Positions 2,215 to 61,241 of a stretch of DNA of 64,000 nt are shown in pieces. The translations under genes were made by a program, and so were the position numbers. The notes beneath the pieces are model-generated. The model saw only the letters and a program-made list of their open reading frames with translations. It searched no databases and was not told the DNA's origin. This DNA is from a phage, in the NCBI GenBank assembly GCA_024975835.1, contig GCA_024975835.1_4840.1; one strand, written 5' to 3'. How positions within the stretch are numbered: the first letter of the stretch is position 1; every line of letters starts with the position of its first letter.

Positions 2215-4161
2215 TTACCATTCCCACAGGATGCGGGAATTATCTGTTTTGTTCTCAGGCTCAAGATATGAGCTGTTGAAGTTATTGGTCGTGTTGATCC
2301 TCTTAGAAGCATCCACATTCTGCTGTACTGGCATCACGACGCTGGCTGGAGGCGGTGAATAGCCGCCTTGTACTTGCTCAATATTAGACAGCGCCCTCCC
2401 TTGTGATGGCATGGCCCCGCCCAGAGTACCACCCCCGATAGAACCATACGCAGCTTTCAGCTGAGAGGTGCGGTCATTAGTCATATTCTTGTCATCCGAA
2501 GACGCACCAGAAGGTATTGGAGTCAGCGTTTGTGGATCGATGTTCGGTTGTGCTGGCGTCTGTGGCTGCTGGGTCTCTGTCACATTAGGAGATGGATTCT
2601 CATCAGTGTCAATCAGCATAGACTGGCGAGCCTCATCCATCTTCTGCTTCGCAGCCTGTCCACCCAGAGCGTCAGGGATGATGCTGACGAACTTGTCAAC
2701 GATATCGAACATCGCATTGGTGATTGTGTTCAGCATGTTGAAGAAAGGTTTCTTCACATTTTCGGCAAATCCCTTCTTGATTTCGTCAATAACCTTGTTG
2801 GCCACACCCATGCCCTCGTCGATCACACTACTGATACCCCCTGTGATCCAGTCTACCAGCTTTATCAACTCGGACTGTAGGTTGTCTGCTAACTTGCCAG
2901 GGATATCCGTAAGAGACGTGTCTCTCCCGATCCCTGCAAACAAGTCGTTGCTAATCCAGTCGATAATACCATTCAGCCAACGAGCGGGAGCCTCAGTGAT
3001 CATGAGGGTGTATTTGCGCAGGGTTTCACCCGCCTCGGTATCAAAGCCAAAGATCTTGGACACCCAGTCAAATAGATCACCAAATCCACCAACCAGTTCT
3101 GATATCCCCGCCCGTACTCGGTCAACTATCGTGACAGCACCTTTACCCAGGATCTCCTTCGCATCAATGAAGCCTTTACCGAAGTCCCAGATCATAGACA
3201 GGAGAGCCAGTGGGCCGACTTTCAGGAACTTGAACACCTTCCCAAATGGACCCAGAAGTTTGGTGATACCTTCTCCCAGCTTGGAGAACATACCGAGGAA
3301 AGCCCCGACAACGCCACCGATGATCTTGAACGGCTTGAGCAAGAATCCCTTCAGTGCATTCAGACCGAGCATAGCAGCCACAGCAGCCCCGATACCGGAG
3401 GAATCGTCTTTCTGGTCATCGTCTTTGGGTATAACAGAACCCGCCTGAGGATGACCACCTGTTTCTTTGTCGGTTTCCCCACGGCGCATCTCGTCCTTCT
3501 CACGCCACTTCTGGTCTTCATCAAAGATGCGTGTCAACACTCCAACGATATGACCACCCGTGCGCCCAATCTTGTTTTCAATACTAGACAGGCGAGTAAG
3601 GGTGTCATCGGAGTTCTTTTTCAGTTCAGCAACATCGTCACGAACTTCGATCATCACTCCGTCGATCATGTTCAAGAATGATCCTACGCGGACCAGAGAC
3701 ACGCTCTGCTCGTCCATGCGCTTGAGGGTGTCATCATTGGCAGACTTCAGCTGGTCTGAGATCAGGTTAAGATACTCCAGGGACGTGTCATCTGTTGGCA
3801 TACGGGTGATCTCACCGAGGCGGTCAATCTTGCCTGCGATATTCTCCAGTTCCCGATTGCCTTCGTTACCCACATCGACAGTATCTTTCATCCATACGCT
3901 GAAGTCGCGGGTGAAGATCGGAGACATGCGAGCGAATCCCATGACGATCTCATTGACCGTCGGGATACGGATTTCAAATGGCTTGGACTCGGCCTTGGTG
4001 CCCTGTTTGGTGGCAGATTCCAGCTTGGCCAGATTCTTGTTCATCCGGTCAAGCTGTTTGTTGGTTTCATTCTGAGCGCGGAGTTGTTTGCGCTGCATCA
4101 TCTCCGCCTTGATCTTGTCTAGAACTTTGACAACATCGTTGTTCGTTGCTTCCTGTGCCAT
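2215..4161 (-). CDS. tape-measure-like or internal tail protein
   Basis: 648 aa; coiled-coil-prone N-terminal half, long Gly-rich hydrophobic segment, Pro/Gln-rich C-terminus. Last gene of a minus-strand late operon. Confidence 0.5.
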   Translation of the reverse strand: MAQEATNNDVVKVLDKIKAEMMQRKQLRAQNETNKQLDRMNKNLAKLESATKQGTKAESKPFEIRIPTVNEIVMGFARMSPIFTRDFSVWMKDTVDVGNEGNRELENIAGKIDRLGEITRMPTDDTSLEYLNLISDQLKSANDDTLKRMDEQSVSLVRVGSFLNMIDGVMIEVRDDVAELKKNSDDTLTRLSSIENKIGRTGGHIVGVLTRIFDEDQKWREKDEMRRGETDKETGGHPQAGSVIPKDDDQKDDSSGIGAAVAAMLGLNALKGFLLKPFKIIGGVVGAFLGMFSKLGEGITKLLGPFGKVFKFLKVGPLALLSMIWDFGKGFIDAKEILGKGAVTIVDRVRAGISELVGGFGDLFDWVSKIFGFDTEAGETLRKYTLMITEAPARWLNGIIDWISNDLFAGIGRDTSLTDIPGKLADNLQSELIKLVDWITGGISSVIDEGMGVANKVIDEIKKGFAENVKKPFFNMLNTITNAMFDIVDKFVSIIPDALGGQAAKQKMDEARQSMLIDTDENPSPNVTETQQPQTPAQPNIDPQTLTPIPSGASSDDKNMTNDRTSQLKAAYGSIGGGTLGGAMPSQGRALSNIEQVQGGYSPPPASVVMPVQQNVDASKRINTTNNFNSSYLEPENKTDNSRILWEW

Positions 4162-6123: not shown

Positions 6124-7092
6124 TTAGAAGCTATCGCCTTCGGTTTCAAAGCGCCCTTTATGTAGAGGCTCCAGTTCAATGAAGGTCATGTCAACCTGCG
6201 TGGACACGATACCATCATCTTTGTGAACCGCATATGAACTGTCCGGCGTCTCGTTGACGAACATGTTGGAAAGTACACAAGTGGAGATGCGGTGCAGCCA
6301 CTGGTTACGCTCCCCATTGACCATGAACGTAATGTCGAATGTTGAAGGATGCAAGTAAAACGCGCTGGAATTCTTGTTGTACTTGTACTCTGGGTACATA
6401 TGCATCTTGAACATGCGGATGATCTCACGGACCATCTTGGCTTCCTTCTGAGATCGCGGCGTGAATTTGAATGTAAATGGAATCTCACGGTTGCGAACAC
6501 CCTGGAAGATCATCTCCACGTATGGGTTGGTCATGGTGCCTGTGAACAACTCAAGGGTGTCATGGGCGTTAATGCTCGGCAGGAATGGAATAGCCTCCGA
6601 CGCAGATTGGATAGCCTTGGTGGCAGCGAATCGCCCCATCTCCTTCCCGACGTTGAGCGCATCACCCAGTTTAAACTGAGTCATGTCTTGGGCGGCGCGG
6701 GAAAGGAACTGTGCCCCCATACCAGCCAGCCCCAGCTCACTACCATTCCAGCCAACACCATAGTTGGTTGTAATGGACTCAGGCATACAAAGTACGATAG
6801 ACTCGTTTGAACGAACGTGACGCGCCCATGCATATTTGGTGATGGAACCAGACTTGGACCCATAGACCACAGGAGTATTCCCCAGAGGGTTCTGTATTGG
6901 GTTCTCGATAGTCTGAGTAGCCGTATTGCCATAAGATGAACCGGAGATGCGGTTGATGTTGAATAGGACATAGTGTCCCAAGGTCTTACCCCCAGTGACG
7001 TCTAGGGGATAAGACAATTGCTTCTGAGCCTGGGACAATCCCTTCGTGTTCAGAACCTTGATCTTATCGATTGTCTTCTTGAAGTCGGACAT
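6124..7092 (-). CDS. putative virion structural protein, first gene of late operon
   Basis: 322-aa ORF; CTAAATA motif on the minus strand 35 nt upstream of its start. Confidence 0.45.
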   Translation of the reverse strand: MSDFKKTIDKIKVLNTKGLSQAQKQLSYPLDVTGGKTLGHYVLFNINRISGSSYGNTATQTIENPIQNPLGNTPVVYGSKSGSITKYAWARHVRSNESIVLCMPESITTNYGVGWNGSELGLAGMGAQFLSRAAQDMTQFKLGDALNVGKEMGRFAATKAIQSASEAIPFLPSINAHDTLELFTGTMTNPYVEMIFQGVRNREIPFTFKFTPRSQKEAKMVREIIRMFKMHMYPEYKYNKNSSAFYLHPSTFDITFMVNGERNQWLHRISTCVLSNMFVNETPDSSYAVHKDDGIVSTQVDMTFIELEPLHKGRFETEGDSF

Positions 7093-7126
7093 GGTCTCAG
7101 CCCTTAAATAGATAGAGTGTTATGAC

Positions 7127-7133
7127 TATTTAG
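7127..7133 (-). promoter_or_regulatory. late-promoter-like CTAAATA motif
   Basis: Minus-strand CTAAATA 35 nt upstream of the ATG at 7092; same motif and spacing recur before other structural genes. Confidence 0.35.
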
Positions 7134-7142
7134 GACTAGATT

Positions 7143-7880
7143 ATGAGATACTTCGTCTACCAGATAACCAATCTTCTAAACGGTAAGATATATGTTGGTG
7201 CCCACAAAGGCGAACCGGATGATGGCTATATGGGTTCTGGTGTTATGATAACCAGAGCAATCAAGAAACATGGAGTTGAAAACTTCAGAAAGGATATTTT
7301 ATTGGAGTGTGAAACTCAGGAACAAATGTACCTAGAAGAATCCAGAATAGTAACCAAAGATTTTATAGAAAGGGAAGATACATACAATTTGACGCTGGGT
7401 GGATGTGGATCCTTCGACCACATCAATTCAGACCCAGAGGCTAGAAAGCAGGCGTCTACCAAAGCTCTGAACACATTACTCTCTAAACCAAAAGAAGAAC
7501 TGGAAAGAATTTATCGTTCAAGAGCGCTAAACGGTTCTAGAAATTTTTGGTTTGGGAAAGATCGTTCGGGAGAAAATAACCCAAGATTTGGTTGTGTTGT
7601 AGACCAGCAAACCAGGGACAAAATAAGAAATTCAAATAAGCGACTTGTTGAATTGGGGTTGGTAGATTACTCTAATTGCAAAGGGGCTGTGACGAAAGAA
7701 GGGCGCGAGAGAATATCCGAGGCCAATTCCCGAGAATTCAAATTCATCAACCCAGAAGGGCAGTTGGTGACAATTGTCAACCTGGCAAAATTTTGTAAAG
7801 AAAACGGTTTGAGCGAAGGCTCCATGGGCCACGTAAACAAGGGTCGCAATTTACAGCATAAAGGTTGGAGGAAAGCATAA
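7143..7880 (+). CDS. GIY-YIG homing endonuclease (free-standing, Seg-like)
   Basis: N-terminus YFVYQITNLLNGKIYVGAHKG...YMGSG matches the GIY-YIG signature; basic C-terminal region fits a DNA-binding domain. Confidence 0.85.
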   Translation: MRYFVYQITNLLNGKIYVGAHKGEPDDGYMGSGVMITRAIKKHGVENFRKDILLECETQEQMYLEESRIVTKDFIEREDTYNLTLGGCGSFDHINSDPEARKQASTKALNTLLSKPKEELERIYRSRALNGSRNFWFGKDRSGENNPRFGCVVDQQTRDKIRNSNKRLVELGLVDYSNCKGAVTKEGRERISEANSREFKFINPEGQLVTIVNLAKFCKENGLSEGSMGHVNKGRNLQHKGWRKA

Positions 7881-40268: not shown

Positions 40269-40300
40269 GTTAGGTTCCTCAGTGGGTTAGCCATATGGGG

Positions 40301-40307
40301 TATTTAG
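40301..40307 (-). promoter_or_regulatory. late-promoter-like CTAAATA motif
   Basis: Minus-strand CCTAAATACCCCATATGG 33 nt upstream of the ATG at 40268. Confidence 0.35.
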
Positions 40308-40399
40308 GCTTCCCGCTTGGCGATGCCTGGTTTGTACAGGACGCCTCTCGGAATATTGGAGGAAGGTTTTCATAGATACCCCACACTGGTTGTATGGGG

Positions 40400-40406
40400 T
40401 ATTTAG
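40400..40406 (-). promoter_or_regulatory. second copy of CTAAATACCCC motif
   Basis: Direct repeat of the element at 40301, about 100 nt further upstream. Confidence 0.3.
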
Positions 40407-40412
40407 GATGGA

Positions 40413-50751: not shown

Positions 50752-50758
50752 CTAAATA
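50752..50758 (+). promoter_or_regulatory. late-promoter-like CTAAATA motif
   Basis: ACTAAATACCCC 38 nt upstream of the ATG at 50796. Confidence 0.4.
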
Positions 50759-50795
50759 CCCCTAGATGAAACGAACACATTTAGGGGTATTTGAA

Positions 50796-53700
50796 ATGGC
50801 TAATAAACCAACACAGCCTGTTTTCCCTCTCGGTCTGGTGGCTGAAGAGCAGTCTACTTTGGCTGGTGTCGTCAACACGGGTACGATTGAGCATGGACCA
50901 GATGCTGTCCTGACTTTACCCGAGGGTAATGCCAGCGCAGGACTCCCGTCTTCCGTTCGCTACAATGCCGACTCCGACGAATTTGAGGGCTTCTATGAAA
51001 ATGGTGGATGGTTGCCGCTGGGTGGCGGTGGTATCCGCTGGGAAGTCCTTCCGCATGCCTCTACGGCAACGCTCACTGAAGGGCGAGGCTATCTCATTAA
51101 TAATACCACAGGGGCATCTACAGTGGTTCTCCCTTCCCCTACGCGTGTTGGGGATTCTGTTACTATTTGCGACGCTTATGGGAAATTTGCCACTTACCCA
51201 TTGACTGTGTCTCCTTCTGGAAATAATTTGTATGGCTCCACTGAAGACATGGCTATAACAACTGATAACGTATCAGCAACGTTCACTTGGTCTGGACCTG
51301 AACAAGGTTGGATTATTACATCCGGCGTCGGTCTTGGCCAAGGTCGTGTCTACAGTCGTGAAATCTTTACAAAAATTTTGGCGTCTGAGACAAGTTCTGT
51401 CACTCTCAATACTCCACCAACAATCGTGGACGTGTATGCTGATGGAAAACGTCTTGCGGAATCCAAATATTCACTAGATGGGAATGTAATCACTTTCAGT
51501 CCTTCTTTGCCAGCCAGCACAGAACTTCAGGTGATTGAATATACTCCTATTCAATTGGGTATTGGGGATGGTTCTGGCTCTTCCACGATTACCTGGGTCT
51601 ATAATGGGGGTTCAGCGATTGGTGGTGAAACCGAAATCACGTTGGACGTCGTTGTTGATGATGTTCCGGCCATTGATATAAACGGAAGTCGCCAGTATAA
51701 AAATCTGGGGTTCACATTCGATCCATTAACCAGTAAAATCACTCTTGCGCAAGAACTGGAACCAGAGGATGAAGTTGTTGTAATTATCAATGGAACACCA
51801 AACATCTATAATCAAATTGATCATACTTTGCGGGAAGTTGCTCGCGCAACCAATGTTAAAGATACAGAGGTCGTTTATTTTAGTGTTGGTGCTGCGTTAA
51901 GTGGGTATAAAGTTATTTATGACAAGGAGACGCAAAGGGCTTATCCCTTGCCTGCTGATATTGCCCCTGGTACTACTGCTGTCAGTCTTAGTTCTTCCGC
52001 TGTACTTGTGCATTCAGCGGGTTCTGTAGACCTCGGGGAATTGGCTGTTACTCGTGAAGAGTACGTCACATTGTCCGGAACATTTGATACTGGTGTAACA
52101 GTTAATACCAAGAATGAACTGGTTGTTTTTACTGATGGTAAGTACCGTTGGGATGGGGTGTTGCCTAAAGAAGTTTCTGCTGGCTCAACTCCAGAGACTG
52201 CTGGTGGTGTAGGTGCGGGAAAATGGTTGAGTGTTGGTGATGTATCATTGAGAGCCGACTTACTGTCAGGTGGCATGACTGATTTAATTGGATTTCCTGG
52301 GTACAACAATCTTACAGCATTCTTGCATACCACTGTTCGTACAGTAGAAGAGTTCAGAAGTGACGGACTAACTGACGCACAGGTATTCCAAGCGGCAATC
52401 AATGCAGGTAACGTGCGTGTGCCAGCAGGTAGCGTTATTAACATCACAGGGAATATTGATATCACTATCCCAGCCAATCGTTTAATTGTTGTAGATGACG
52501 GAGGTATATTACGCTCTAACGGTCGTTTTACAGCTTACGGCGTAAACGATGTTCATTGGGTAATTAACGGACTAGTTGAAAGCACTGGCATGGTTGCGGC
52601 CCCGGCAAAATCTGGATGGCCCAATACAGCAGAAGGCACTCAAGCGGGAGATGAGCGTGGGTTTATTGAGTTTGGTGGTGTTGTATTCGCCGGTAACGAT
52701 GGGAAGAATTATTCTGTAACTGGTTCAGGGCACATTCAGGGTCCATGGTCTGGAACTCCTAACGTTTCAGATTTAGCCAATCAGTTAAATAAAAAGGGTA
52801 TTGCTGCGTGGAACTGCTCAGGATTCACTGTTGAAGGCGTTAGTATCGACGGCTTTGAAGGTGAGCAAGTGTATTGGTTTGCTCGCAACGCAGACAACAG
52901 AGACGCAATTTTCAATAGAGTAAAAAGTACCAATGCACGTTTTAACGCCCTGAACATGAACGTGTACAGCGCAACAAAAAATATTCGTGTGATCGATTGT
53001 TACACCAATAATTCGTACAACGGAATTGAATCATCTGCTGGTGATATCATTAACACAATCCATGACAATCCGGTTAACACAGGTATTCTGTTTGGTTCAG
53101 GTACTGGTGGTGGCAACCGATTAATTGAAGGCAATCAGGTGAACGAATGCCTCGGAACACCTTATTCACTACTTTATAATAAGGACTATGAAAGTCGTGG
53201 GTATGTACCTAACGTTACAGTGGTAAACAACACCGCAACAAACCCCGGCGTTCACTTCATCGCCATCTCAGGCATCACTGGATTCAAAGTCGCCAACAAT
53301 ACATGTTACGGGCTTAAAACAGGTAGATTTATTCAGGCCACCGTTTTACAAGGCGGTATTATAGAAAATAATACTAACTACAAACCATCACCAGGGACAG
53401 AGCACGTCTATCGTGGCGAATGTTATAGCGTAGAAGAGCATAATAACGCGCGTGTACTTTTAGGCGGTTCGTATGTTACTGCCGCCGCGTCAGACCACGC
53501 CATAACCGGGGGGAATTCAAGCGCTATAACGACATTCGGCAATCGTGAAAACTTCAAGGATTTACGTGCTGACAGTCCAGCAATCGGAACTGGCGCAGAA
53601 CTTAGATACTCTGTTGATATAGGCGCCGCATTTACTCCTGTATCGTTAAGTATGCAACTGACCACATATGGGGGTTCAGGCGCTCAAGCTGACTGGTCTA

Positions 53701-54275
53701 TCAATAACCTAAAGATAAATCCTAATGATGTACTTGGGCAGTCATGGGTGTCTCGACATACAGGACATTGGGAACCTGGGACTGATGGTATACAAAATTT
53801 CGGGTCACCAACGCGCCGTGTTAACAACAGCTATTTCACGGTAGCGCCTACTGTAACGTCTAATGAAATGGCTAAAACTGCGCTGTTAGATCTATCTGAA
53901 GCAGAACGTAACGCGGCATTAGAAATTAAAGATAACATTCGCAAGTATAAGCTATTAGATGCTATCGCTATTAAAGGGGAGGATGGTGCCCGTTGGCACT
54001 TCGGTGTGGGTGCACAAACGGTAGGCGATATAATGAGAAAACATGGACTTAATCCTGCTGACTATGGGTTTTGGTGTCACGATACATGGGAAGACCAATA
54101 CACGGATGTAATGAAAAAAATTTATACCGGAAATACCGTTGTAAATGAGGAAGGACTTTCAGTTCCTGAATACACATTAGAACCAACAGGTGAAAGGATG
54201 CTTGTTAGGACCGCCGGAGAAAACTACGGCATTCGTTATGATGAATTGTCTATGTTTATATTAAGTGCAATATAA
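50796..54275 (+). CDS. tailspike protein 1 (beta-helix depolymerase-like, C-terminal chaperone-like domain)
   Basis: Start at MANKPTQ (AGGGG upstream); conserved anchor module around residues 350-480; pectate-lyase-like repeats in the middle; C-terminal GARWHFG...GIRYDE domain shared with tailspike 2. Confidence 0.65.
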   Translation: MANKPTQPVFPLGLVAEEQSTLAGVVNTGTIEHGPDAVLTLPEGNASAGLPSSVRYNADSDEFEGFYENGGWLPLGGGGIRWEVLPHASTATLTEGRGYLINNTTGASTVVLPSPTRVGDSVTICDAYGKFATYPLTVSPSGNNLYGSTEDMAITTDNVSATFTWSGPEQGWIITSGVGLGQGRVYSREIFTKILASETSSVTLNTPPTIVDVYADGKRLAESKYSLDGNVITFSPSLPASTELQVIEYTPIQLGIGDGSGSSTITWVYNGGSAIGGETEITLDVVVDDVPAIDINGSRQYKNLGFTFDPLTSKITLAQELEPEDEVVVIINGTPNIYNQIDHTLREVARATNVKDTEVVYFSVGAALSGYKVIYDKETQRAYPLPADIAPGTTAVSLSSSAVLVHSAGSVDLGELAVTREEYVTLSGTFDTGVTVNTKNELVVFTDGKYRWDGVLPKEVSAGSTPETAGGVGAGKWLSVGDVSLRADLLSGGMTDLIGFPGYNNLTAFLHTTVRTVEEFRSDGLTDAQVFQAAINAGNVRVPAGSVINITGNIDITIPANRLIVVDDGGILRSNGRFTAYGVNDVHWVINGLVESTGMVAAPAKSGWPNTAEGTQAGDERGFIEFGGVVFAGNDGKNYSVTGSGHIQGPWSGTPNVSDLANQLNKKGIAAWNCSGFTVEGVSIDGFEGEQVYWFARNADNRDAIFNRVKSTNARFNALNMNVYSATKNIRVIDCYTNNSYNGIESSAGDIINTIHDNPVNTGILFGSGTGGGNRLIEGNQVNECLGTPYSLLYNKDYESRGYVPNVTVVNNTATNPGVHFIAISGITGFKVANNTCYGLKTGRFIQATVLQGGIIENNTNYKPSPGTEHVYRGECYSVEEHNNARVLLGGSYVTAAASDHAITGGNSSAITTFGNRENFKDLRADSPAIGTGAELRYSVDIGAAFTPVSLSMQLTTYGGSGAQADWSINNLKINPNDVLGQSWVSRHTGHWEPGTDGIQNFGSPTRRVNNSYFTVAPTVTSNEMAKTALLDLSEAERNAALEIKDNIRKYKLLDAIAIKGEDGARWHFGVGAQTVGDIMRKHGLNPADYGFWCHDTWEDQYTDVMKKIYTGNTVVNEEGLSVPEYTLEPTGERMLVRTAGENYGIRYDELSMFILSAI

Positions 54276-54281
54276 CAAAAA

Positions 54282-54306
54282 CCCCGCTTTGGCGGGGTTC
54301 TTATTA
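54282..54306 (+). terminator. intrinsic terminator
   Basis: CCCCGC-TTTG-GCGGGG hairpin followed by TTCTTATTAT. Confidence 0.7.
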
Positions 54307-54310
54307 TACC

Positions 54311-54374
54311 TTTGTTCATAAATTTATTAGTTCAGACTAAATACCCTATATTGGCAAATCCTTTATGGGGTATT
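54311..54374 (+). repeat. 64-bp direct repeat, copy 1 (promoter/leader cassette)
   Basis: Identical except one base to 56971..57034; contains CTAAATACCC and the RBS/start context of tailspike 2. Confidence 0.7.
54337..54343 (+). promoter_or_regulatory. late-promoter-like CTAAATA motif
   Basis: 35 nt upstream of the ATG at 54378. Confidence 0.4.
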
Positions 54375-54377
54375 ATC

Positions 54378-56696
54378 ATGATTTCTCAATTCAATCAACC
54401 ACGCGGCTCCGCTTCCATAGAAGTTAACAAACAATCTATCGCTCGAAATTTCGGTGTCAAAGAAGACGAAGTCGTTTATTTCACTGCTGGTATTGATCTC
54501 AGTGGATTTAAAGTAATTTATGATGAGACCACCCAACGGGCTTATTCTCTCCCTTCCGGTATTGTTTCAGGGACAACTGCAATTAGTCTGGACGAACGAG
54601 CTATCCTCACTCATTCCGCTGGTTCTGTTGATCTAGGGGAACTTGCCGTAGCCAGAGAAGAATATGTAACCTTACCTGGTTCATTTGATACCGGTGTAAC
54701 CGTCAATGCTAAGAATGAATTGGTTGTCTTTACCGACGGCAAGTACCGTTGGGATGGGGAGATTCCCAAAATAGTACCTGTCAACACAACCCCTAAAGAT
54801 ACTGGGGGTGTTGGTCTAGGGGCATGGTTAAGAGTCGGCGATGCATCTTTGCGTTCTGAAGTTTACTCAAATATGGCTTGGGTTTCTCCTGAAATGTACG
54901 GTGCACTTGAAACGGAATCTGATGCGGATACTCAAGCTGTTATAGATGCGTTTATTACCGCGAAGACAATGGGGCTGGCTGTGAAGCTGTCCAGAATATA
55001 TAAGTGTGATCAAAACATATCAGTAGCTAATTTTTACGGAGATATTTTTGGCGTAAGTATGGCCACATGCGGAATAAAATTTGCTGCTGGATATGGTCTT
55101 ATCATTGATAACTCTGGGACCACAGTAGTACGCAAACCTGTAGGTCTTTGTAATTTCACCATTAAAGCCACTGGTAAACGACAAGGCACTGCTCTAGAGT
55201 TTCTAGGTACTGGTGGAATAGCTTATGCACGACAACTTATTGTAAGAGATTTAGATGTATCAAATGATGCTGGAACCCCTACCTCTTTTGATGTAGTATT
55301 CAAGTTAAACCGTGCAGGTCAATGTGTATTTGATGGGGTGAATGTCGCTGGCGGTGGCACAAGCGACCCCAACGCTCGCATGGGCAAAATATTCGACCTG
55401 TACTCAACAAAGAATATCAATGTTGTCAACGGTTCTTATCAGAACTTCGACACCTTCATGTACGCGCATGACGATACCGAAGGTGTTGTGGTTTTCGGTA
55501 ACCACATCATCGCAGGTCGTCGTGGTGTTGTCTCAGAAAACAATGTTGGCAACTTGTTCCAGGTAACGAACAACCACTTCAACACATCGTTGAGTGCTGT
55601 AGAGTTGGGCGATCTGTCTAACAACGGTGGGAACCATAGCATAATCACCGACAACTTCTGTATGGTATGGAATGGGATTCCTGAAGATGATACTACGCCA
55701 TATATCGGGTTCAAGTCCTGTGCCATGTACGGAACCTATAGTGATAATGAGGTGCTTCTGTCTGGTTTCACTAAAGACGTTACTCACACCTTGTTTACTT
55801 CTAATGCCACAGGGACCAGAACGGCACAATACAATATAGTAAGCAACCCAAGAGTTAATAATTGTACCAGAGGCATTCATATGCTGGCTGGCACCCAATC
55901 GAACCATGTGAGCAACGTCCAGCGCGTAGGCGTAACACTGGCAAATGCCATCATAGATGAAGGGGCAAACAACAGGTCATGGATGTTTGATGTAGATAAT
56001 AATGCATTTATGACCAGAAACATAAAATTGTGCACTCCAGGTTCAGCCGTTGCGCAGCAAATTCGTTTTTACTCCGCTACTGATGCAAATACACCAAGCG
56101 CCATTCTCCGAGTATCTGGAGGCGTTGCCGGTGTTGGCGGGGATGGGACGGCAGAGCTTACTGCTGGTACTACCGTCTTTAAAAACATTAGACCGTCAGC
56201 TGCAAACACTTATAGCTGCGGATCTAGCGGTGCACCGTGGTCTGGCGGGTTCACACAAACTGCATTCACCGTGACATCTGATGCTGATTACAAATCAGAT
56301 CCACTGCTGATGACTGATGATATTCTTGATGCAGCAGAAGAGGTACAACTTGTCCAGTATCAATATCTCGACAGGATTGAAGAAAAAGGAGCTGACGGTG
56401 CCCGCTGGCACTTCGGAGCCATTGCACAACGGTATGTAGAGGCATTTGAAAGACACGGGCTTGATGCTCATCGCTTTGGGTTCATCTGTTATGATGAATG
56501 GGGTGATGCTCCTGCTGTCATAGATGAAGATACTGGCGAAGTGATCACGCCAGCTATTGAGGCAGGATCAAGATACGGCATTCGTTATGAAGAAATGCTG
56601 GTAATGGAAGCAGCGCTGCAACGCAGAAACTATGCGCGGCTACTTGATAAATACGAAACACTTGAGGCTCGTATTAGCTCATTAGAGAATAAATAA
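54378..56696 (+). CDS. tailspike protein 2 (with C-terminal chaperone-like domain)
   Basis: Start at MISQFN; N-terminal anchor module nearly co-linear with that of tailspikes 1 and 4; C-terminal domain homologous to that of tailspike 1. Confidence 0.6.
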   Translation: MISQFNQPRGSASIEVNKQSIARNFGVKEDEVVYFTAGIDLSGFKVIYDETTQRAYSLPSGIVSGTTAISLDERAILTHSAGSVDLGELAVAREEYVTLPGSFDTGVTVNAKNELVVFTDGKYRWDGEIPKIVPVNTTPKDTGGVGLGAWLRVGDASLRSEVYSNMAWVSPEMYGALETESDADTQAVIDAFITAKTMGLAVKLSRIYKCDQNISVANFYGDIFGVSMATCGIKFAAGYGLIIDNSGTTVVRKPVGLCNFTIKATGKRQGTALEFLGTGGIAYARQLIVRDLDVSNDAGTPTSFDVVFKLNRAGQCVFDGVNVAGGGTSDPNARMGKIFDLYSTKNINVVNGSYQNFDTFMYAHDDTEGVVVFGNHIIAGRRGVVSENNVGNLFQVTNNHFNTSLSAVELGDLSNNGGNHSIITDNFCMVWNGIPEDDTTPYIGFKSCAMYGTYSDNEVLLSGFTKDVTHTLFTSNATGTRTAQYNIVSNPRVNNCTRGIHMLAGTQSNHVSNVQRVGVTLANAIIDEGANNRSWMFDVDNNAFMTRNIKLCTPGSAVAQQIRFYSATDANTPSAILRVSGGVAGVGGDGTAELTAGTTVFKNIRPSAANTYSCGSSGAPWSGGFTQTAFTVTSDADYKSDPLLMTDDILDAAEEVQLVQYQYLDRIEEKGADGARWHFGAIAQRYVEAFERHGLDAHRFGFICYDEWGDAPAVIDEDTGEVITPAIEAGSRYGIRYEEMLVMEAALQRRNYARLLDKYETLEARISSLENK

Positions 56697-56784
56697 AAAT
56701 CCTACTCTCCTGAGAGTACTATGTATATGCATTCGTTATTTACGGTTGTAAACTATAGTAATTACATTAACAATCCAATAGGTA

Positions 56785-56810
56785 AGCCCCAGCATATGGG
56801 CTTTTTGTTG
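56785..56810 (+). terminator. putative intrinsic terminator
   Basis: AGCCC-CAGCATAT-GGGCT hairpin followed by TTTTGTTG. Confidence 0.55.
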
Positions 56811-56941
56811 TACCCCAAACAATCCTTTATGTAGACTGTTTTAGTCAATTACGACTTAACTAACCTGAGAAAGTCCCTATGGGAAATGAACCAGATAACG
56901 TAACTCTAGCGAGAGACTGAGAAACATTTCGAAAACCAAAA

Positions 56942-56966
56942 CCCCGCTTCGGTGGGGTTTCTCTTA
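56942..56966 (+). terminator. intrinsic terminator (second, in tandem)
   Basis: CCCCGC-TTCG-GTGGGG hairpin followed by TTTCTCTT; near-copy of the 54282 terminator. Confidence 0.65.
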
Positions 56967-56970
56967 TACA

Positions 56971-57034
56971 TTTGTTCATAAATTTATTAGTTCAGACTAA
57001 ATACCCCATATTGGCAAATCCTTTATGGGGTATT
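56971..57034 (+). repeat. 64-bp direct repeat, copy 2 (promoter/leader cassette)
   Basis: 63 of 64 identical to 54311..54374. Confidence 0.7.
56997..57003 (+). promoter_or_regulatory. late-promoter-like CTAAATA motif
   Basis: 37 nt upstream of the ATG at 57040. Confidence 0.4.
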
Positions 57035-57039
57035 TTCAA

Positions 57040-59103
57040 ATGACCAGAAACGTCGAGAGCATCTTTGGAGCGGTCGTAACAGCTCCACACCAGATTCCAT
57101 ACACTTACACAGCAACTGGCGGAGAGAAGTTTATCTCCCTCCCTTTCTACCCTGTCACTGGAGTAGTCACAGTCAACGGTAGTATGCAAGTTCCGTTAGA
57201 CAACTTCGAGATAGACGGGAATACGTTAAACCTTGGGCGCGCATTATCCAAAGGCGATGTTGTGTTCTGTCTGTTTGATAAGATTCTTTCGCCAGAAGAT
57301 TATAAAACCGGGATTCGAATCTATAAGTTTCAGGCTGTAGGAGGTGAAACTGAGTTCACTCCTGATTTCACATCTTATGGAGTCCAATCTCTTTATATCG
57401 GTGGTGAGTACAAAACACCCGAAATTGAATATTCCTATAACAGCACGACAGGGAAAGTGTCTTTGCAAACTGCACTGACTGCAGGCGTTTGGGTTGTGGC
57501 TGAAATGTCTGCTAAACAACCGAATATCGGTCCGTTGTTTGACCGAAGTATTCAAGAAATCGCTCGTGCAGCTAACGTAAAAGACTCTGAAGTAATCCTT
57601 AGTACAGATAGTACCCAGTTCCTGAATGACAAGAAGATTGTTTATTCTGTTAGTGAACAGAAGGCTTATGGGTTACCAGTATTACCTACTAACGTATTCA
57701 TTCAGTCTGTGGATAATGGCAAGTTAACTTACTCCCCAGGTAACATTGCTGTAGACCTGGTTCCTGTTCCTGGCTCTGCTGAGTCACTTACTGCTTCGGA
57801 TGTTCCAACTACTTCTGGGGATTCCGTACAGGATGGGTTAGATAGTATTGATGTATTTATTGATACTGACTCATATAAGAGAGTTGGGGATATTCGCGGT
57901 TATACAACCACGCAGGATGTAACTCCTGTTAACGCAATTATTGCAGCAAATCAAGATGTTGGTATTATTCGGCTACCTAAGGGTAACTGGACTGGTAACT
58001 TTGCTCTGCTAAATAAAACTAGTTTAGATGGCACTTCACTTGCTACTACAACGTTAACTGTTCCAATTAATACAGCAGGTATTAAACCCTCCGGTACTGA
58101 TGTACGTGGTATTAACATTAGTAACATTGCTATGCAGGTGGTGGGTGCTGTGTCTGGTGGGGCACCAATTGGTACAGGTATTGGTCTGGATATGACTGGC
58201 TGTACTAAGATGGTTAACTGTACTATTTCTAATATCTATAGTGATTTCTTTGATATTGGTTTCAAAGCTGGCCCTGCTGATTTCTCTAACGTTTACAATA
58301 ACATTCGCTGTAATAACAACCGTATTGGTTTTGATATTTCTAGTAACGGGCAGATTATTGAGAATACCTGGAACAGCCCATATGCTGCTAACTGGACCCA
58401 GATTGGTATGAAGATTAGTGGTGTTGGTGGTCAGGTAATCAATGCACCAAACTTTGGGCATAATGGCACCGCTGGCGCTTACTTCATGCACATTGACACC
58501 AACTCCCGTGGAGTGATTATTAATGGTGCTAACTTCGAAATGGATGCTGTAGGTGGTAAACTTTCTGCTGGTAGCCAAGCAGTAATTGTAGCTTCTGACT
58601 CAGCAGTTACTTTTAATGCCCCTGTATTCAATAAGGTTGGTGCTGCTGGCCCTAATACCTATCTTTTTCGTATCCGTGGTACATGTGTAGTACATATTAA
58701 CAATCCGCAGATTTACAATGATGATGGGATTGTTGGACACTTACGTATTGAAGATACTGCTACTGTATATCTGAATGACCCTAAAGGCGTTATTACGGTA
58801 ATTTCTGTGGCAGCAGGTGCTAAGTTGATTCGTGTACATGAAAAACTGGCTAATGCACCTAGTTATACGGCTGTTCAATCAGTTCAGTCTGGTACAGTTG
58901 TAAACGTTGGTTTCTATCCTACGTATGCTATAGGTGTACCGGATTTCCATGCCAGCGCACTACCAGCTACATTTAAGTATGCCGTTACCTTTGATACGTA
59001 TAACTCTACCCATGGAACTATGGTAGCTAGGGTTTACGATACTACTACCGGGTTGTATGTTACTTCAGTATCTGTTCCCACATTCATTCAAGCATGGCGT
59101 TAG
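57040..59103 (+). CDS. tailspike protein 3
   Basis: Start at MTRNVES (track's upstream Met lies inside the repeat); shorter, divergent anchor region (IQEIARAANVKDSEV); Gly/Asn-rich beta-helix-like body. Confidence 0.6.
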   Translation: MTRNVESIFGAVVTAPHQIPYTYTATGGEKFISLPFYPVTGVVTVNGSMQVPLDNFEIDGNTLNLGRALSKGDVVFCLFDKILSPEDYKTGIRIYKFQAVGGETEFTPDFTSYGVQSLYIGGEYKTPEIEYSYNSTTGKVSLQTALTAGVWVVAEMSAKQPNIGPLFDRSIQEIARAANVKDSEVILSTDSTQFLNDKKIVYSVSEQKAYGLPVLPTNVFIQSVDNGKLTYSPGNIAVDLVPVPGSAESLTASDVPTTSGDSVQDGLDSIDVFIDTDSYKRVGDIRGYTTTQDVTPVNAIIAANQDVGIIRLPKGNWTGNFALLNKTSLDGTSLATTTLTVPINTAGIKPSGTDVRGINISNIAMQVVGAVSGGAPIGTGIGLDMTGCTKMVNCTISNIYSDFFDIGFKAGPADFSNVYNNIRCNNNRIGFDISSNGQIIENTWNSPYAANWTQIGMKISGVGGQVINAPNFGHNGTAGAYFMHIDTNSRGVIINGANFEMDAVGGKLSAGSQAVIVASDSAVTFNAPVFNKVGAAGPNTYLFRIRGTCVVHINNPQIYNDDGIVGHLRIEDTATVYLNDPKGVITVISVAAGAKLIRVHEKLANAPSYTAVQSVQSGTVVNVGFYPTYAIGVPDFHASALPATFKYAVTFDTYNSTHGTMVARVYDTTTGLYVTSVSVPTFIQAWR

Positions 59104-59109
59104 TAACTG

Positions 59110-59140
59110 CCCCCCCCTTCTCTCCTGGGAGGGGGGTTTC
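59110..59140 (+). terminator. putative terminator hairpin
   Basis: CCCCCCC...GGGGGG stem followed by TTTCC; loop unusually long. Confidence 0.5.
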
Positions 59141-59162
59141 CTAGAAAAACAAAGAGGTTTAT

Positions 59163-61241
59163 ATGAACGAAATGTTCTCACAAGGTGGTAAGGGTTCAAC
59201 TGGAATCTTAACCAACAAACAAGCAGTAGCTCGTCACTTTGGGGTTAAACAATCTGAGGTTGTTTACTTCTCAGTGGGTGCTGTACTAAGCGGTTATAAA
59301 GTTATCTATGACAAAGTGTCACAGCGTGCTTATTCCTTACCTGCCGACATTGGTTCAGGGGTTACTGCTGTAAGCCTTAGTCCTGCTGGGGTATTAGTTC
59401 ACTCTGACGGTAATGTTGACTTGGGTGCACTAGCCGTTACCCGCGAAGAGTATGTAACCCTACCTGGCTCATTTACTACAGGCGTTACTGTTAATAGTAA
59501 AAATGAACTTGTTGTGAGTGTTGGTGTTAAATACCGTTGGGATGGTTCTCTACCTAAAGTAGTTCCTCCTGATTCTACTCCATTAAGCACTGGGGGAGTT
59601 GGCCCAGGGGCATGGATAGTAGAAGGTGTTGCTGGGTTGGAGCAACGTTTGGCTTCCTGGGAAGGTTCATCCATTATTGACTCTGGTAATCTGTCCCTTT
59701 ACAAAAAGAGTGGTGTATTTGGTGATGGTGGGGAAGTAACTGATAAGCAACAGGTTATTAAGCATACAGATGGATTTTGGTACAAGTATACTGGAACCCT
59801 GCCCGTTAGCTATGGCTCTGCCCCAGACTCTTCCTGGACTAATGTTGGTAAGTTAACCGGGTTTAATGAACACTCACCTGAGAACTTTGGGGCAATCCCG
59901 AACGATGCCAGCTTTGACTGTCTACCTGCTATAAAATTAGCTATAGCTACAGGCACATTAAACCTGGATGGTAATTCTACCTACCACGTAACTGATGAGG
60001 TTATCATACCCTCACATCTACGTGGGAATTTGAATGGGGCAACAATCAAAGCAATCGGTCCTACCTGGCCTGTATTAAAATCTGTTGTTCGTGTTAGTAA
60101 ATTTCCTATTGGAACCCCAACCGTTGATGTAGCTAATACTGAGAACCAGGTACGAGGGCTACGTTTAATTGGTAGTTTGAACATAGACTGTGCAGATATT
60201 GCATCGTATGGTTTTTACGCACGACTAATGTGTGCAGAATCCGAGATGGGTAGTATCTATTCTTACAATGCTAATAAGTATGGCATTGTAATGTTCGCTT
60301 GCTGGTATTTTCAGATGGGCGTGCTTCATGCAAACAATTGTGCAAGGGGGATGGCTTTAGGTTACTCAACAGAAGGGGAGCAGGGCGATACTTACGTAAA
60401 CGCAACATACTTCCCACACATTAGTGCATGGGGTACTGATAAGTCTACGGGGCTAGGCTATGACCCAATCACCGACGATGCAAGTAAGTACACAATAGGT
60501 GCTGGTATTATTCTAGGCCGTGGTTTGTCCACTAGTGTTGGTGTGCTGTGCTCTGAGAATACATCCGGTGCTGGTGTGGTAACAATGGACCCTGCTGCGT
60601 GGGATATTGGAGTTATGTACTGTGAGGGCAACAGTAAAGACTTCACTCAGGAGGGTGAGCCGAAGGTATCATTGTTGTCATCTAAGGCTAACAGCGAGAG
60701 TCATACACTTACCATCTCTACACTTCACCTATCTGCTGGTTGTGGCATTTTAACCAGAAGTAAACAAGAACGGGTGTTGATCAGAAGTCTTTACCGTTTT
60801 GATAATTCAAAAACCTTCCACTCTTACTGCACAGAAGATACAATAGAGATTGGTAGTAGCAACTACTATGTACTTAATGGTCATAATTACAATGCACCTG
60901 CTGCACTTATTAAAGAACCTCTCAATGTGGATTTTGTGCGATCAGGGCTGACCTTGAGTGAGTGGACACCTACCGTTATTGGTTACTTTCCTGGCAGCAC
61001 GTCAGAACAACAGCTTTATGTTAAGCTGCCTGTAAGCCCTAGTGGGCTAGATCTACAGATTGCTAGTGAAGATGGTACAGAATACATCACTGTAACTGGC
61101 ACAGATTTTAAAGCCTCTTTAACCAAGAAAAGGCTGCCCAGTAAGGTGTATGAGATAAAGATTGGGTCTGTCTCAACAGTAGCTGTTACTGATTGCTCCA
61201 TTTTAATCAGAAGTAAAAAAGGAGATTGGTACTACTGGTAA
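59163..61241 (+). CDS. tailspike protein 4
   Basis: N-terminal module (VARHFGVKQSEVVYFSVGAVLSGYKVIYDK...KYRWDGSLPK) highly similar to tailspikes 1 and 2; distinct C-terminal body. Confidence 0.6.
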   Translation: MNEMFSQGGKGSTGILTNKQAVARHFGVKQSEVVYFSVGAVLSGYKVIYDKVSQRAYSLPADIGSGVTAVSLSPAGVLVHSDGNVDLGALAVTREEYVTLPGSFTTGVTVNSKNELVVSVGVKYRWDGSLPKVVPPDSTPLSTGGVGPGAWIVEGVAGLEQRLASWEGSSIIDSGNLSLYKKSGVFGDGGEVTDKQQVIKHTDGFWYKYTGTLPVSYGSAPDSSWTNVGKLTGFNEHSPENFGAIPNDASFDCLPAIKLAIATGTLNLDGNSTYHVTDEVIIPSHLRGNLNGATIKAIGPTWPVLKSVVRVSKFPIGTPTVDVANTENQVRGLRLIGSLNIDCADIASYGFYARLMCAESEMGSIYSYNANKYGIVMFACWYFQMGVLHANNCARGMALGYSTEGEQGDTYVNATYFPHISAWGTDKSTGLGYDPITDDASKYTIGAGIILGRGLSTSVGVLCSENTSGAGVVTMDPAAWDIGVMYCEGNSKDFTQEGEPKVSLLSSKANSESHTLTISTLHLSAGCGILTRSKQERVLIRSLYRFDNSKTFHSYCTEDTIEIGSSNYYVLNGHNYNAPAALIKEPLNVDFVRSGLTLSEWTPTVIGYFPGSTSEQQLYVKLPVSPSGLDLQIASEDGTEYITVTGTDFKASLTKKRLPSKVYEIKIGSVSTVAVTDCSILIRSKKGDWYYW

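Follow-up and report, generated by a model that had tools for sequence, protein, structure and literature searches.

The window, a 64,000-nucleotide (nt) stretch of contig GCA_024975835.1_4840.1, belongs by its sequence to an Agtrevirus phage (Ackermannviridae) and carries two near-identical non-coding cassettes, A directly upstream of the tailspike gene tsp3 and B directly upstream of the tailspike gene tsp2. Each cassette is best explained as a self-contained late expression unit for the tailspike gene that follows it, and this explanation as a whole, including a module swap that left a relic of Gamaleyavirus DNA between tsp3 and cassette B, is considered probable. In this scheme, the terminator of the cassette would stop the transcript of the upstream tailspike gene, and a T4-type late promoter (CTAAATAcCcc), read by gp55/gp33-modified RNA polymerase, would restart transcription. 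Read-through RNA would contain both arms of a leader hairpin, so that the ribosome site would be locked in a stem of 11–12 base pairs (bp), while RNA from the cassette's own promoter would start approximately 6 nt after TAAATA without the 5′ arm and would be translatable. The translational gate itself, deduced from the leader sequences, is regarded as fairly likely. The gene flanked by both cassettes, which was called tailspike 2 in an original prediction made from the sequence alone, is tsp3 in the nomenclature of the field.

The two repeat copies, 54311–54374 and 56971–57034, indeed differed at a single position (54347, T; 57007, C). With a repeat finder, the pair was extended to 105 nt at 91% identity (direct repeat family D2), i.e., cassette A at 54274–54378 and cassette B at 56934–57038, both on the plus strand. 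A 35-nt core occurred exactly twice in the window and in none of 100 shuffled sequences. Each cassette begins with a terminator hairpin, followed by a short T-rich tail, an AT-rich spacer (TTTGTTCATAAATTTATTAGTTCAGA; 54311–54336, plus strand, in cassette A), and the motif CTAAATACCC(C/T), and ends with ATATTGG plus a variable loop, TATGGGGTATT, three to five bases, and the ATG. This anatomy of motif, hairpin, and terminator supports the original prediction of promoter/leader cassettes with terminators. The terminator hairpins in front of the two copies, which had been described as near-identical, are of the same type, and the first (54280–54299, plus strand; AACCCCGCTTTGGCGGGGTT, then CTTATTAT) was flagged as terminator-like by the program; the second (56940–56959, plus strand; AACCCCGCTTCGGTGGGGTT) was read from the sequence and has the architecture of the cassette A hairpin with one G.U pair. 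A terminator is annotated in the record of phage Mutine at the place homologous to the cassette A hairpin, which is predicted to end the tsp4 transcript. A sigma-70-like match in cassette A was treated as chance, because promoter-like matches were no commoner than in shuffled sequence. An Rfam scan of 54200–57100 returned no match at the gathering score (best 15–27 bits against thresholds of 41–60), and the sub-threshold matches were mostly driven by terminator hairpins.

The late-promoter motif was located by motif search at 54337–54347 in cassette A (CTAAATACCCT, one base off the consensus CTAAATACCCC) and as an exact match (CTAAATACCCC) at 56997–57007 in cassette B, both on the plus strand. 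CTAAATAcCcc has been named as a regulatory motif for ViI-like phages (Ackermannviridae) (PMC7283392). The window contained six matches to CTAAATACCCC against 0.56 expected, all directly upstream of gene starts, and the motif was positioned 41–44 nt before the start codons of tsp3, tsp2, and tsp4, as it was in ten relatives. In the record of phage SPTD1, a “Kuttervirus late gene promoter” is annotated beside the motifs upstream of tsp4, tsp3, tsp2, and vriC; the annotated 7-mers lie approximately 5 nt downstream of CTAAATA, which is taken to be a coordinate offset. In the close relative AV101, counterparts of gp55 (the late sigma factor of T4) and of gp33 (the co-activator) are annotated; by synteny with AV101, that part of the genome is probably located outside the window. 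We infer that the cassette motif is the Ackermannviridae variant of a T4-type (gp55/gp33) late promoter. In T4, the late promoter is an 8-bp box situated about one helical turn upstream of the transcription start, and AT-rich sequence is preferred just downstream of the box (PMC2988020). For the C-run that follows the box in the cassettes, pairing would thus be an easier explanation than promoter melting.

A second class of late leaders was observed, in which CTAAATATCT(C/T) is combined with a normal GGAG ribosome site and no hairpin (window 46887 and 61304; AV101 127905 and 138699); its members include the leaders of vriC, of the tail sheath gene, and at window 46887. The four bases after the box co-varied with the type of ribosome site.

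The leader hairpin of cassette A (54340–54374, plus strand) is formed by a 5′ arm at 54340–54350 (AATACCCTATA), which overlaps the promoter, and a 3′ arm at 54364–54374 (TATGGGGTATT), which includes a Shine-Dalgarno-like GGGG at 54367–54370. The hairpin of cassette B (56999–57035, plus strand) has its arms at 56999–57010 and 57024–57035 and its GGGG at 57027–57030, ahead of the start codon at 57040. From the TAAATA box onward, AATACCCCATA is the exact complement of TATGGGGTATT, and the sole Shine-Dalgarno-like element ahead of the ATG, the GGGG 7–9 nt upstream, is part of TATGGGGTATT; this GGGG was independently marked as the ribosome site by the annotators of Mutine. In the tailspike leaders, the stem includes the GGGG and the AUG lies 3–5 nt outside of it. 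The private C-to-T change at 54347 turns one pair of the stem into G.U, which RNA tolerates. A diverged third copy is located upstream of tsp4 (50752–50795, plus strand), where CTAAATACCCC is followed by a 16-bp hairpin (50753–50768 and 50778–50793) that is kept in all relatives; its stem reads CCCCTA/TAGGGG, as opposed to CCCCATA/TATGGGG in cassettes A and B.

Folding of the read-through leaders yielded −17.4 kcal/mol (z −3.9) for tsp3, −20.7 kcal/mol (z −3.65) for tsp2, −21.8 kcal/mol (z −7.8) for tsp4, and −17.9 kcal/mol (z −5.1) for the minus-strand gene at 40406. When these four leaders were begun approximately 6 nt after the box, z was above zero, i.e., they were no more structured than shuffled sequences; the tsp3 and tsp2 leaders were unstructured if the RNA began at 54349 and 57009, respectively. 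The perfect 12-bp complement of hairpin B was reached in none of 500 shuffles. In the genome of AV101 (152 kb), perfect complements of at least 10–11 bp ending just before an ATG were present at five of seven CTAAATACCCC sites, again with no such case in 500 shuffles.

Covariation was scanned in viral contigs with only CTAAATACCCC...GGGGTAT required and the neighbouring bases left unconstrained. The bases beside CCCC and GGGG changed together (AAT/ATT, ATA/TAT, CAT/ATG, GTA/TAC, TAA/TTA, TAG/CTA, and TGT/ACA), and the first flanking pair was of Watson-Crick type in 38 of 47 distinct leaders with an ATG within 9 nt, many of which are orthologues, so that this fraction is not a count of independent events. 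At least seven complementary flank variants were found among the 47, i.e., the pairing was kept by compensatory change. The complements in AV101, the GGAG leaders that have no hairpin, and this covariation are three lines of evidence that leader pairing is under selection. The same CTAAATACCCC...GGGGTAT...ATG design with other stem extensions was also seen on short metagenomic viral contigs from IMG/VR of 6–36 kb (L050, L058, L067, L069, L075, and L090).

AV101, Mutine, SPTD1, CECAV_050, YX22, RPN242, and PC3, which comprise Kuttervirus and Agtrevirus phages, have both cassettes at the two positions at which they occur in the window; the pair is therefore neither a private duplication nor an assembly artefact. 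Among 46 instances from the fetched loci, the arms CCCCATA and TATGGGG were invariant and the loop varied (TCATCC, CAAATCCT(C/T), TAACGCC, TTATCC, and CGATCC). The core from promoter to ATG upstream of tsp2 was kept in all ten relatives examined. The AT-rich spacer is present in most A and B cassettes and replaced in fGh-Ecl02, Ag3, and cassette A of SPTD1, and appears to be dispensable in some relatives. In cassette B, terminator and spacer together are replaced in fGh-Ecl02, Ag3, and YX22. Since the core persisted where everything upstream, terminator included, was replaced (fGh-Ecl02, Ag3, cassette A of SPTD1, and cassette B of YX22), the conserved unit is promoter plus leader, with terminator and spacer as frequent but optional parts. 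The near-identity of the two copies thus appears to be mainly old and functional: selection would keep the promoter and both hairpin arms constant in the tsp3 and tsp2 copies, and the copies would occasionally convert each other, with the tsp3 copy of the window bearing a tsp2-type loop.

Tailspike modules have been exchanged at this locus. Loss or replacement of the gene between the cassettes, for which the original prediction had proposed a comparison with related genomes, was indeed found: tsp3 is missing from A221 (three tailspike genes in all), the tsp3-type gene of Ag3 lacks a cassette, and the tsp3 receptor-binding domain was different in every relative examined. In comparisons with ten relatives, conserved blocks began at 54263–54282 and 56930–56942, which correspond to the cassette terminators (exceptions at the second boundary: 56801–56803 in A221 and PC3, 56964 in YX22, and 56996 in fGh-Ecl02), and ended at 52236–52261, 54727–54844, 57608–57778, and 59582, which correspond to the ends of the N-terminal anchor domains. 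From these block boundaries it follows that the exchanged unit is the receptor-binding domain together with its 3′ flank; judged by sequence homology, the module is bounded by coding homology (the N-terminal anchor) on the left and by the cassette of the next gene on the right. The genome comparison thus supports a secondary role of each cassette as the right-hand homology arm in swaps of receptor-binding modules between phages, with the anchor domain as the left-hand arm.

Over 76 nt, cassette A of the window had one difference to cassette B of the Kuttervirus phages Mutine and SPTD1, five to cassette B of the window itself, six to seven to most cassette A copies (AV101, Mutine, CECAV_050, and YX22), and 9–22 to A copies that were deleted or replaced upstream (RPN242, PC3, SPTD1, and fGh-Ecl02). 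Cassette A of the window ends with the A-type junction TATTATCATGATT, i.e., a B-type allele is joined to the tsp3 start, and in fGh-Ecl02 the cores of A and B are the same. A and B have therefore undergone exchange; because cassette A of the window is nearer to Kuttervirus B than to its own B, this exchange could have taken place between phages, and intragenomic gene conversion was rejected as a proven event for the same reason.

The 237-bp gap between the stop of tsp3 (56696) and cassette B (56934) contains foreign DNA. It had been described as about 240 bp with two tandem terminators; the length was right, and only the hairpin at 56784–56803 with its T-run was terminator-like, the other (56703–56718) having 6 bp and no T-run. 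The latter hairpin is part of a private 3′ flank of tsp3 (56697–56783, plus strand) that had no match in the phage collection; the single open reading frame (ORF) of at least 30 codons on the plus strand (37 amino acids (aa), 56721–56834) was unsupported as a gene, and a fold of the whole 237-bp spacer showed nothing notable (z −1.9). Downstream of this flank lies the relic (56784–56945, plus strand), which is of Gamaleyavirus origin and consists of the terminator-like hairpin, the gp63.1–gp63 spacer, and a truncated gp63 start. A sensitive search with 56690–56945 yielded 20 records, all at 85–90% identity over 143–160 nt. Sixteen of these were from G7C-like N4-like podophages (G7C, phi G17, E20, F22, PhAPEC5, PhAPEC7, Bas96, SP5M, KKP 3715, ST4, and Moonfish; five phages under two accessions each), in which the match was always just downstream of the tailspike in the gp63.1 position, and the remaining four were from the Agtrevirus phages A221, PC3, PH4, and AV101. 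According to their records, G7C, E20, and HK2 belong to Gamaleyavirus, and one of the 16 records was not formally classified.

In G7C, the match begins right downstream of the tailspike gene gp63.1 and runs into gp63, which is annotated as similar to gp63 of phage N4. The remnant of gp63 in the window (MGNEPDNVTLARD; 56879–56920, plus strand) has a 10-nt deletion and a stop after 13 codons and is thus a fragment without an intact frame; it has MGNEPDNVTLAR in common with G7C gp63, whose N-terminus reads MGNEPDNVTLARLEERLRNIFENQ. The last position with homology to Gamaleyavirus is 56945, where the terminator of cassette B directly adjoins (GAAAACCAAA, followed by ACCCCGCTTCGG). The window, A221, and PC3 have the same junction, which therefore goes back to a single event. 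In AV101, a longer copy of the relic (93.5% identity over 261 nt) is located after tsp1, a gene that is flanked by G7C-like DNA on both sides. Because it includes the truncated start of the N4-like core gene gp63, the relic is the scar of a transfer across families. As to direction and order of events, a receptor-binding module from the gp63.1 slot of a Gamaleyavirus would have brought along its downstream spacer and the first gp63 codons, and a non-homologous or microhomology event would have joined the captured module to the terminator of cassette B.

The scar of a lost or swapped tailspike gene that the original prediction had seen here is therefore the scar of a swap, made of Gamaleyavirus DNA with a gp63 start rather than of a dead tailspike start. 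Its “degenerate start context” (caaacaatcctttatg, 56816–56831) is situated within the foreign stretch and also occurs in G7C, E20, and PC3; its resemblance to the cassette leader (TACCCCA..AA.CCTTTATG) was weak (score 23 against 15.2 ± 2.3; reached in 15 of 2000 shuffles). The terminators CCCCGCTTCGGCGGGGTT of G7C matched the cassette terminators (0 of 2000 shuffles), and an older transfer in the opposite direction is possible.

No sequenced phage had a close relative of the tsp3 receptor-binding part, and nucleotide searches with tsp3 gave matches that covered only its conserved ends. Among the proteins of the phage collection, the best match over the full length was the gp63.1-slot protein of Gamaleyavirus HK2 (44%), whose flank was too diverged for a donor comparison, and a 41-kb IMG/VR contig with 79% amino-acid and 75% nucleotide identity to the tsp3 receptor-binding domain had an unrelated flank. 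Links between the two groups of phages also exist elsewhere in the cluster: the tsp2–tsp1 junction with the first approximately 320 nt of tsp1 had 89% identity to the gp66–gp63.1 junction of podophage G7C, and the tsp3 receptor-binding domain of fGh-Ecl02 had 80% identity over 2 kb to that of G7C gp66.

The late expression unit, its gate, and the capture of the module from a Gamaleyavirus have to be weighed against a number of contrary points. The 5′ arm would not be transcribed from the cassette's own promoter, because the one-helical-turn rule of T4 places the start past the arm, and both this start site and the masking of the ribosome site in vivo are predictions from the analysis. No mapped transcription start site was found in the literature for any Ackermannviridae phage, and if transcription started upstream of the 5′ arm, the hairpin would be present in all transcripts and the gating idea would fail. 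The terminator before cassettes A and B should already limit read-through, which would leave less need for masking. The invariant arms of the tailspike leaders say little by themselves, as both are also constrained as promoter and ribosome site; the argument for the gate is thus carried by the covariation among paralogous leaders. Three CTAAATACCCC leaders had no hairpin (window 40307, minus strand; AV101 3995 and 112093), and the tsp3-type gene of Ag3 has a plain GGAG leader. No donor with the tsp3 receptor-binding domain of the window beside the relic was found in the phage collection or in IMG/VR.

The view of the original prediction, that the repeats are kept alike chiefly as recombination sites for swapping, deleting, or duplicating tailspike genes, is unlikely as the main explanation. 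It would account for the restart of homology blocks at cassette terminators in most relatives, for the B-type allele in cassette A of the window, and for the presence, absence, and replacement of tsp3 among relatives, which moreover encode the recombination proteins UvsX, UvsY, and gp46; T4-type recombination works on approximately 50 bp of homology. What was strictly conserved, however, was the core from promoter to ATG, also where the upstream 60 nt were replaced (fGh-Ecl02, Ag3, cassette A of SPTD1, and cassette B of YX22), and the same hairpin design was present at single-copy late genes without a repeat partner. In none of the genomes examined was the junction found that a crossover of A with B is expected to leave, and the published left-hand exchange site lies in the coding N-terminal domains. 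The loss of tsp3 in A221 arose otherwise than by such a crossover, because A221 keeps the relic before its single cassette. A role of the cassettes as homology arms is supported by the genome comparison as a secondary one.

That the inverted repeat of the leader serves as an operator for a dimeric regulator or as a hairpin for RNA stability or processing, or is an accident of a C-rich and a G-rich element, is improbable. The arms do coincide with two elements that are conserved for reasons of their own, the palindrome is present in DNA as well, and Ackermannviridae encode RegA-like and other regulators. The flanks of CCCC and GGGG nevertheless covaried across many genes, unlike in an accident, and changes compatible with G.U pairing (54347; leaders with ATAC/GTGT) fit pairing of RNA rather than of DNA. 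Moreover, a stem of 11–16 bp is short for RNase III, and the 3′ arm always ended 3–9 nt before an ATG. Least credible of all, and very improbable, is a recent duplication or assembly artefact, in which case the relic would be the degraded 5′ end of a tailspike gene that was lost; the identity of 63 of 64 bases and the weak likeness of 56816–56831 to the cassette leader could be adduced for it. Dozens of genomes from two genera, sequenced independently of one another, have both copies at the same two positions, which excludes the assembly duplication that had been considered at the outset; the flanks of the two copies differ, and the relic, 85–90% identical to Gamaleyavirus DNA, encodes the start of gp63 and not that of a tailspike.

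The preferred late expression unit closely resembles a known arrangement. In T4, the long transcripts of e, soc, 49, and I-TevI hide the ribosome site, and a late promoter embedded in the 5′ arm gives rise to RNA that is translated (PMC3014915, PMC2988022). The cassettes share with these genes a gp55-type late promoter in the 5′ strand, a Shine-Dalgarno element in the 3′ strand, a predicted late start inside the hairpin, and the location of late genes downstream of other transcription units. They differ from T4 in the motif (CTAAATAcCcc instead of TATAAATA, with C-rich instead of AT sequence after the box), in the ribosome site GGGG(U), and in that a near-identical module with a terminator in front is reused at several structural genes. 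The T4 scheme has been demonstrated, and the cassette version is predicted from the sequence. The cassette motif agrees with the CTAAATAcCcc motif of ViI-like phages (Ackermannviridae) in its places upstream of tsp4, tsp3, tsp2, and vriC; in the literature searched on this motif, a complementary GGGGTAT, a hairpin, or a role of cCcc was not mentioned. A T4-style mask of the ribosome site thus seems not to have been described before in Ackermannviridae, and the hairpin offers a reason, open to testing, why the late-promoter motif has a C-rich part, which had so far gone unexplained.

Modular exchange of tailspikes in Ackermannviridae, with conserved 5′ ends and variable receptor-binding parts, has been described by Sorensen et al. 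(2021, 2023, 2024), as have exchanges from one tsp position to another and with unrelated phages (G7C-like phages among them), with the left-hand recombination site in the coding N-terminal domains (PMC8432352, PMC10791037, PMC11414711). The word “intergenic” was absent from the three papers searched for it. Beyond this work, the present comparison places the right-hand boundary of the module at the cassette of the next gene and shows that non-coding flanks move with the module. The relic resembles the gp66/gp63.1/gp63 locus of G7C in its 85–90% identity to the gp63.1–gp63 spacer and the first 14–22 gp63 codons, and is unlike it in being non-coding debris with a truncated gp63 that is not followed by an N4-like lysis cassette.

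The cassettes themselves are of an ordinary kind, namely late-gene expression units of a known family, and the relic is likewise of a known kind; current views are not overturned by either. The relic provides direct evidence at the nucleotide level, beyond protein similarity, for DNA exchange between N4-like podophages and Ackermannviridae myophages, and its fragment of the neighbouring gene gp63 would point to the direction of transfer. Ackermannviridae are engineered for host range by tailspike swaps. The natural bounds of the module to be swapped are the N-terminal domain (left) and the terminator/promoter cassette of the following gene (right); if translation requires a start at the gene's own promoter, this tells engineers what must accompany a new tailspike. 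A more far-reaching version, in which cCcc is not a promoter determinant but the anti-Shine-Dalgarno arm of a family-wide gate, the cassettes are insulated plug-and-play units, and the relic is a landing pad, is tentative and rather doubtful. If it were true, the instructions “start here” and “ignore RNA not started here” would be written in the same short piece of DNA, the insulation would help to explain the free shuffling of receptor-binding modules in these phages and their G7C-like partners, and G7C-type modules would be captured repeatedly by way of the relic derived from Gamaleyavirus.

Upstream of the tailspike cluster, 10.7 kb of the window had 95–97% identity to the Agtrevirus genomes fGh-Ecl02, vB_CECAV_050, A221, and PC3. 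The cluster itself is located between a baseplate gene and vriC in the order tsp4–tsp3–tsp2–tsp1–vriC, with type-specific N-termini, and is collinear with those of AV101, Mutine, SPTD1, and others. The four tailspike genes are tsp4 at 50796–54275 (start by homology), tsp3 at 54378–56696 (plus strand; 772 aa; N-terminus MISQFNQPRGS as in TSP3 of relatives), tsp2 at 57040–59103 (plus strand; 687 aa, MTRNVES...; N-terminal 210 aa kept in TSP2 of relatives), and tsp1 at 59163–61241, followed by vriC. Two ORF starts differ from those of the homologues: the tsp4 start of the ORF tool (50766) is an in-frame ATG within the stem of the leader hairpin, with homologues beginning at 50796, and an in-frame ATG at 57025 inside the 3′ arm (MGYFQ-MTRN) is picked for tsp2 by ORF callers, with homologues beginning at 57040.

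The Pfam domain Tail_spike_N was detected in tsp4, tsp3, and tsp1; in tsp3 it covers aa 90–155, and a C-terminal Peptidase_S74 chaperone covers aa 634–695. In these three genes Tail_spike_N is encoded by a 240-nt direct repeat with 65–73% identity (52011–52250, 54612–54851, and 59400–59639). This repeat is the left-hand exchange site, because homology to the relatives stops right after it. The region at the start of tsp1 (59104–59483) has no CTAAATA promoter; the gene has a terminator of its own in front and an ordinary AAGAGG ribosome site.

In A221 (L005, 15–3700), approximately 200 nt of unique DNA separate the tsp4-type gene from the Gamaleyavirus relic, behind which the only cassette is located. 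This arrangement could have arisen by a fusion of tsp4 and tsp3 through the shared Tail_spike_N repeat; when an origin was sought for the tsp4 receptor-binding domain of A221, nothing but the relic itself was matched. The 3′ flank of YX22 tsp3 (L008, reverse strand, approximately 6984–7212) was 82.5% identical to the flank of A221 tsp1 (L005, 8434–8662) and, by this similarity, appears to be another non-coding flank that moved with a receptor-binding module between tsp positions.

On the minus strand at 40300–40410 of the window, two late promoters were located 99 nt apart. Relative to AV101 (3569–3958), the gene that follows the hairpin-type promoter at 40406 has lost the greater part of its length by a 390-nt deletion, with a 28-codon ORF remaining; the second promoter (40307) is intact, as is the gene behind it.

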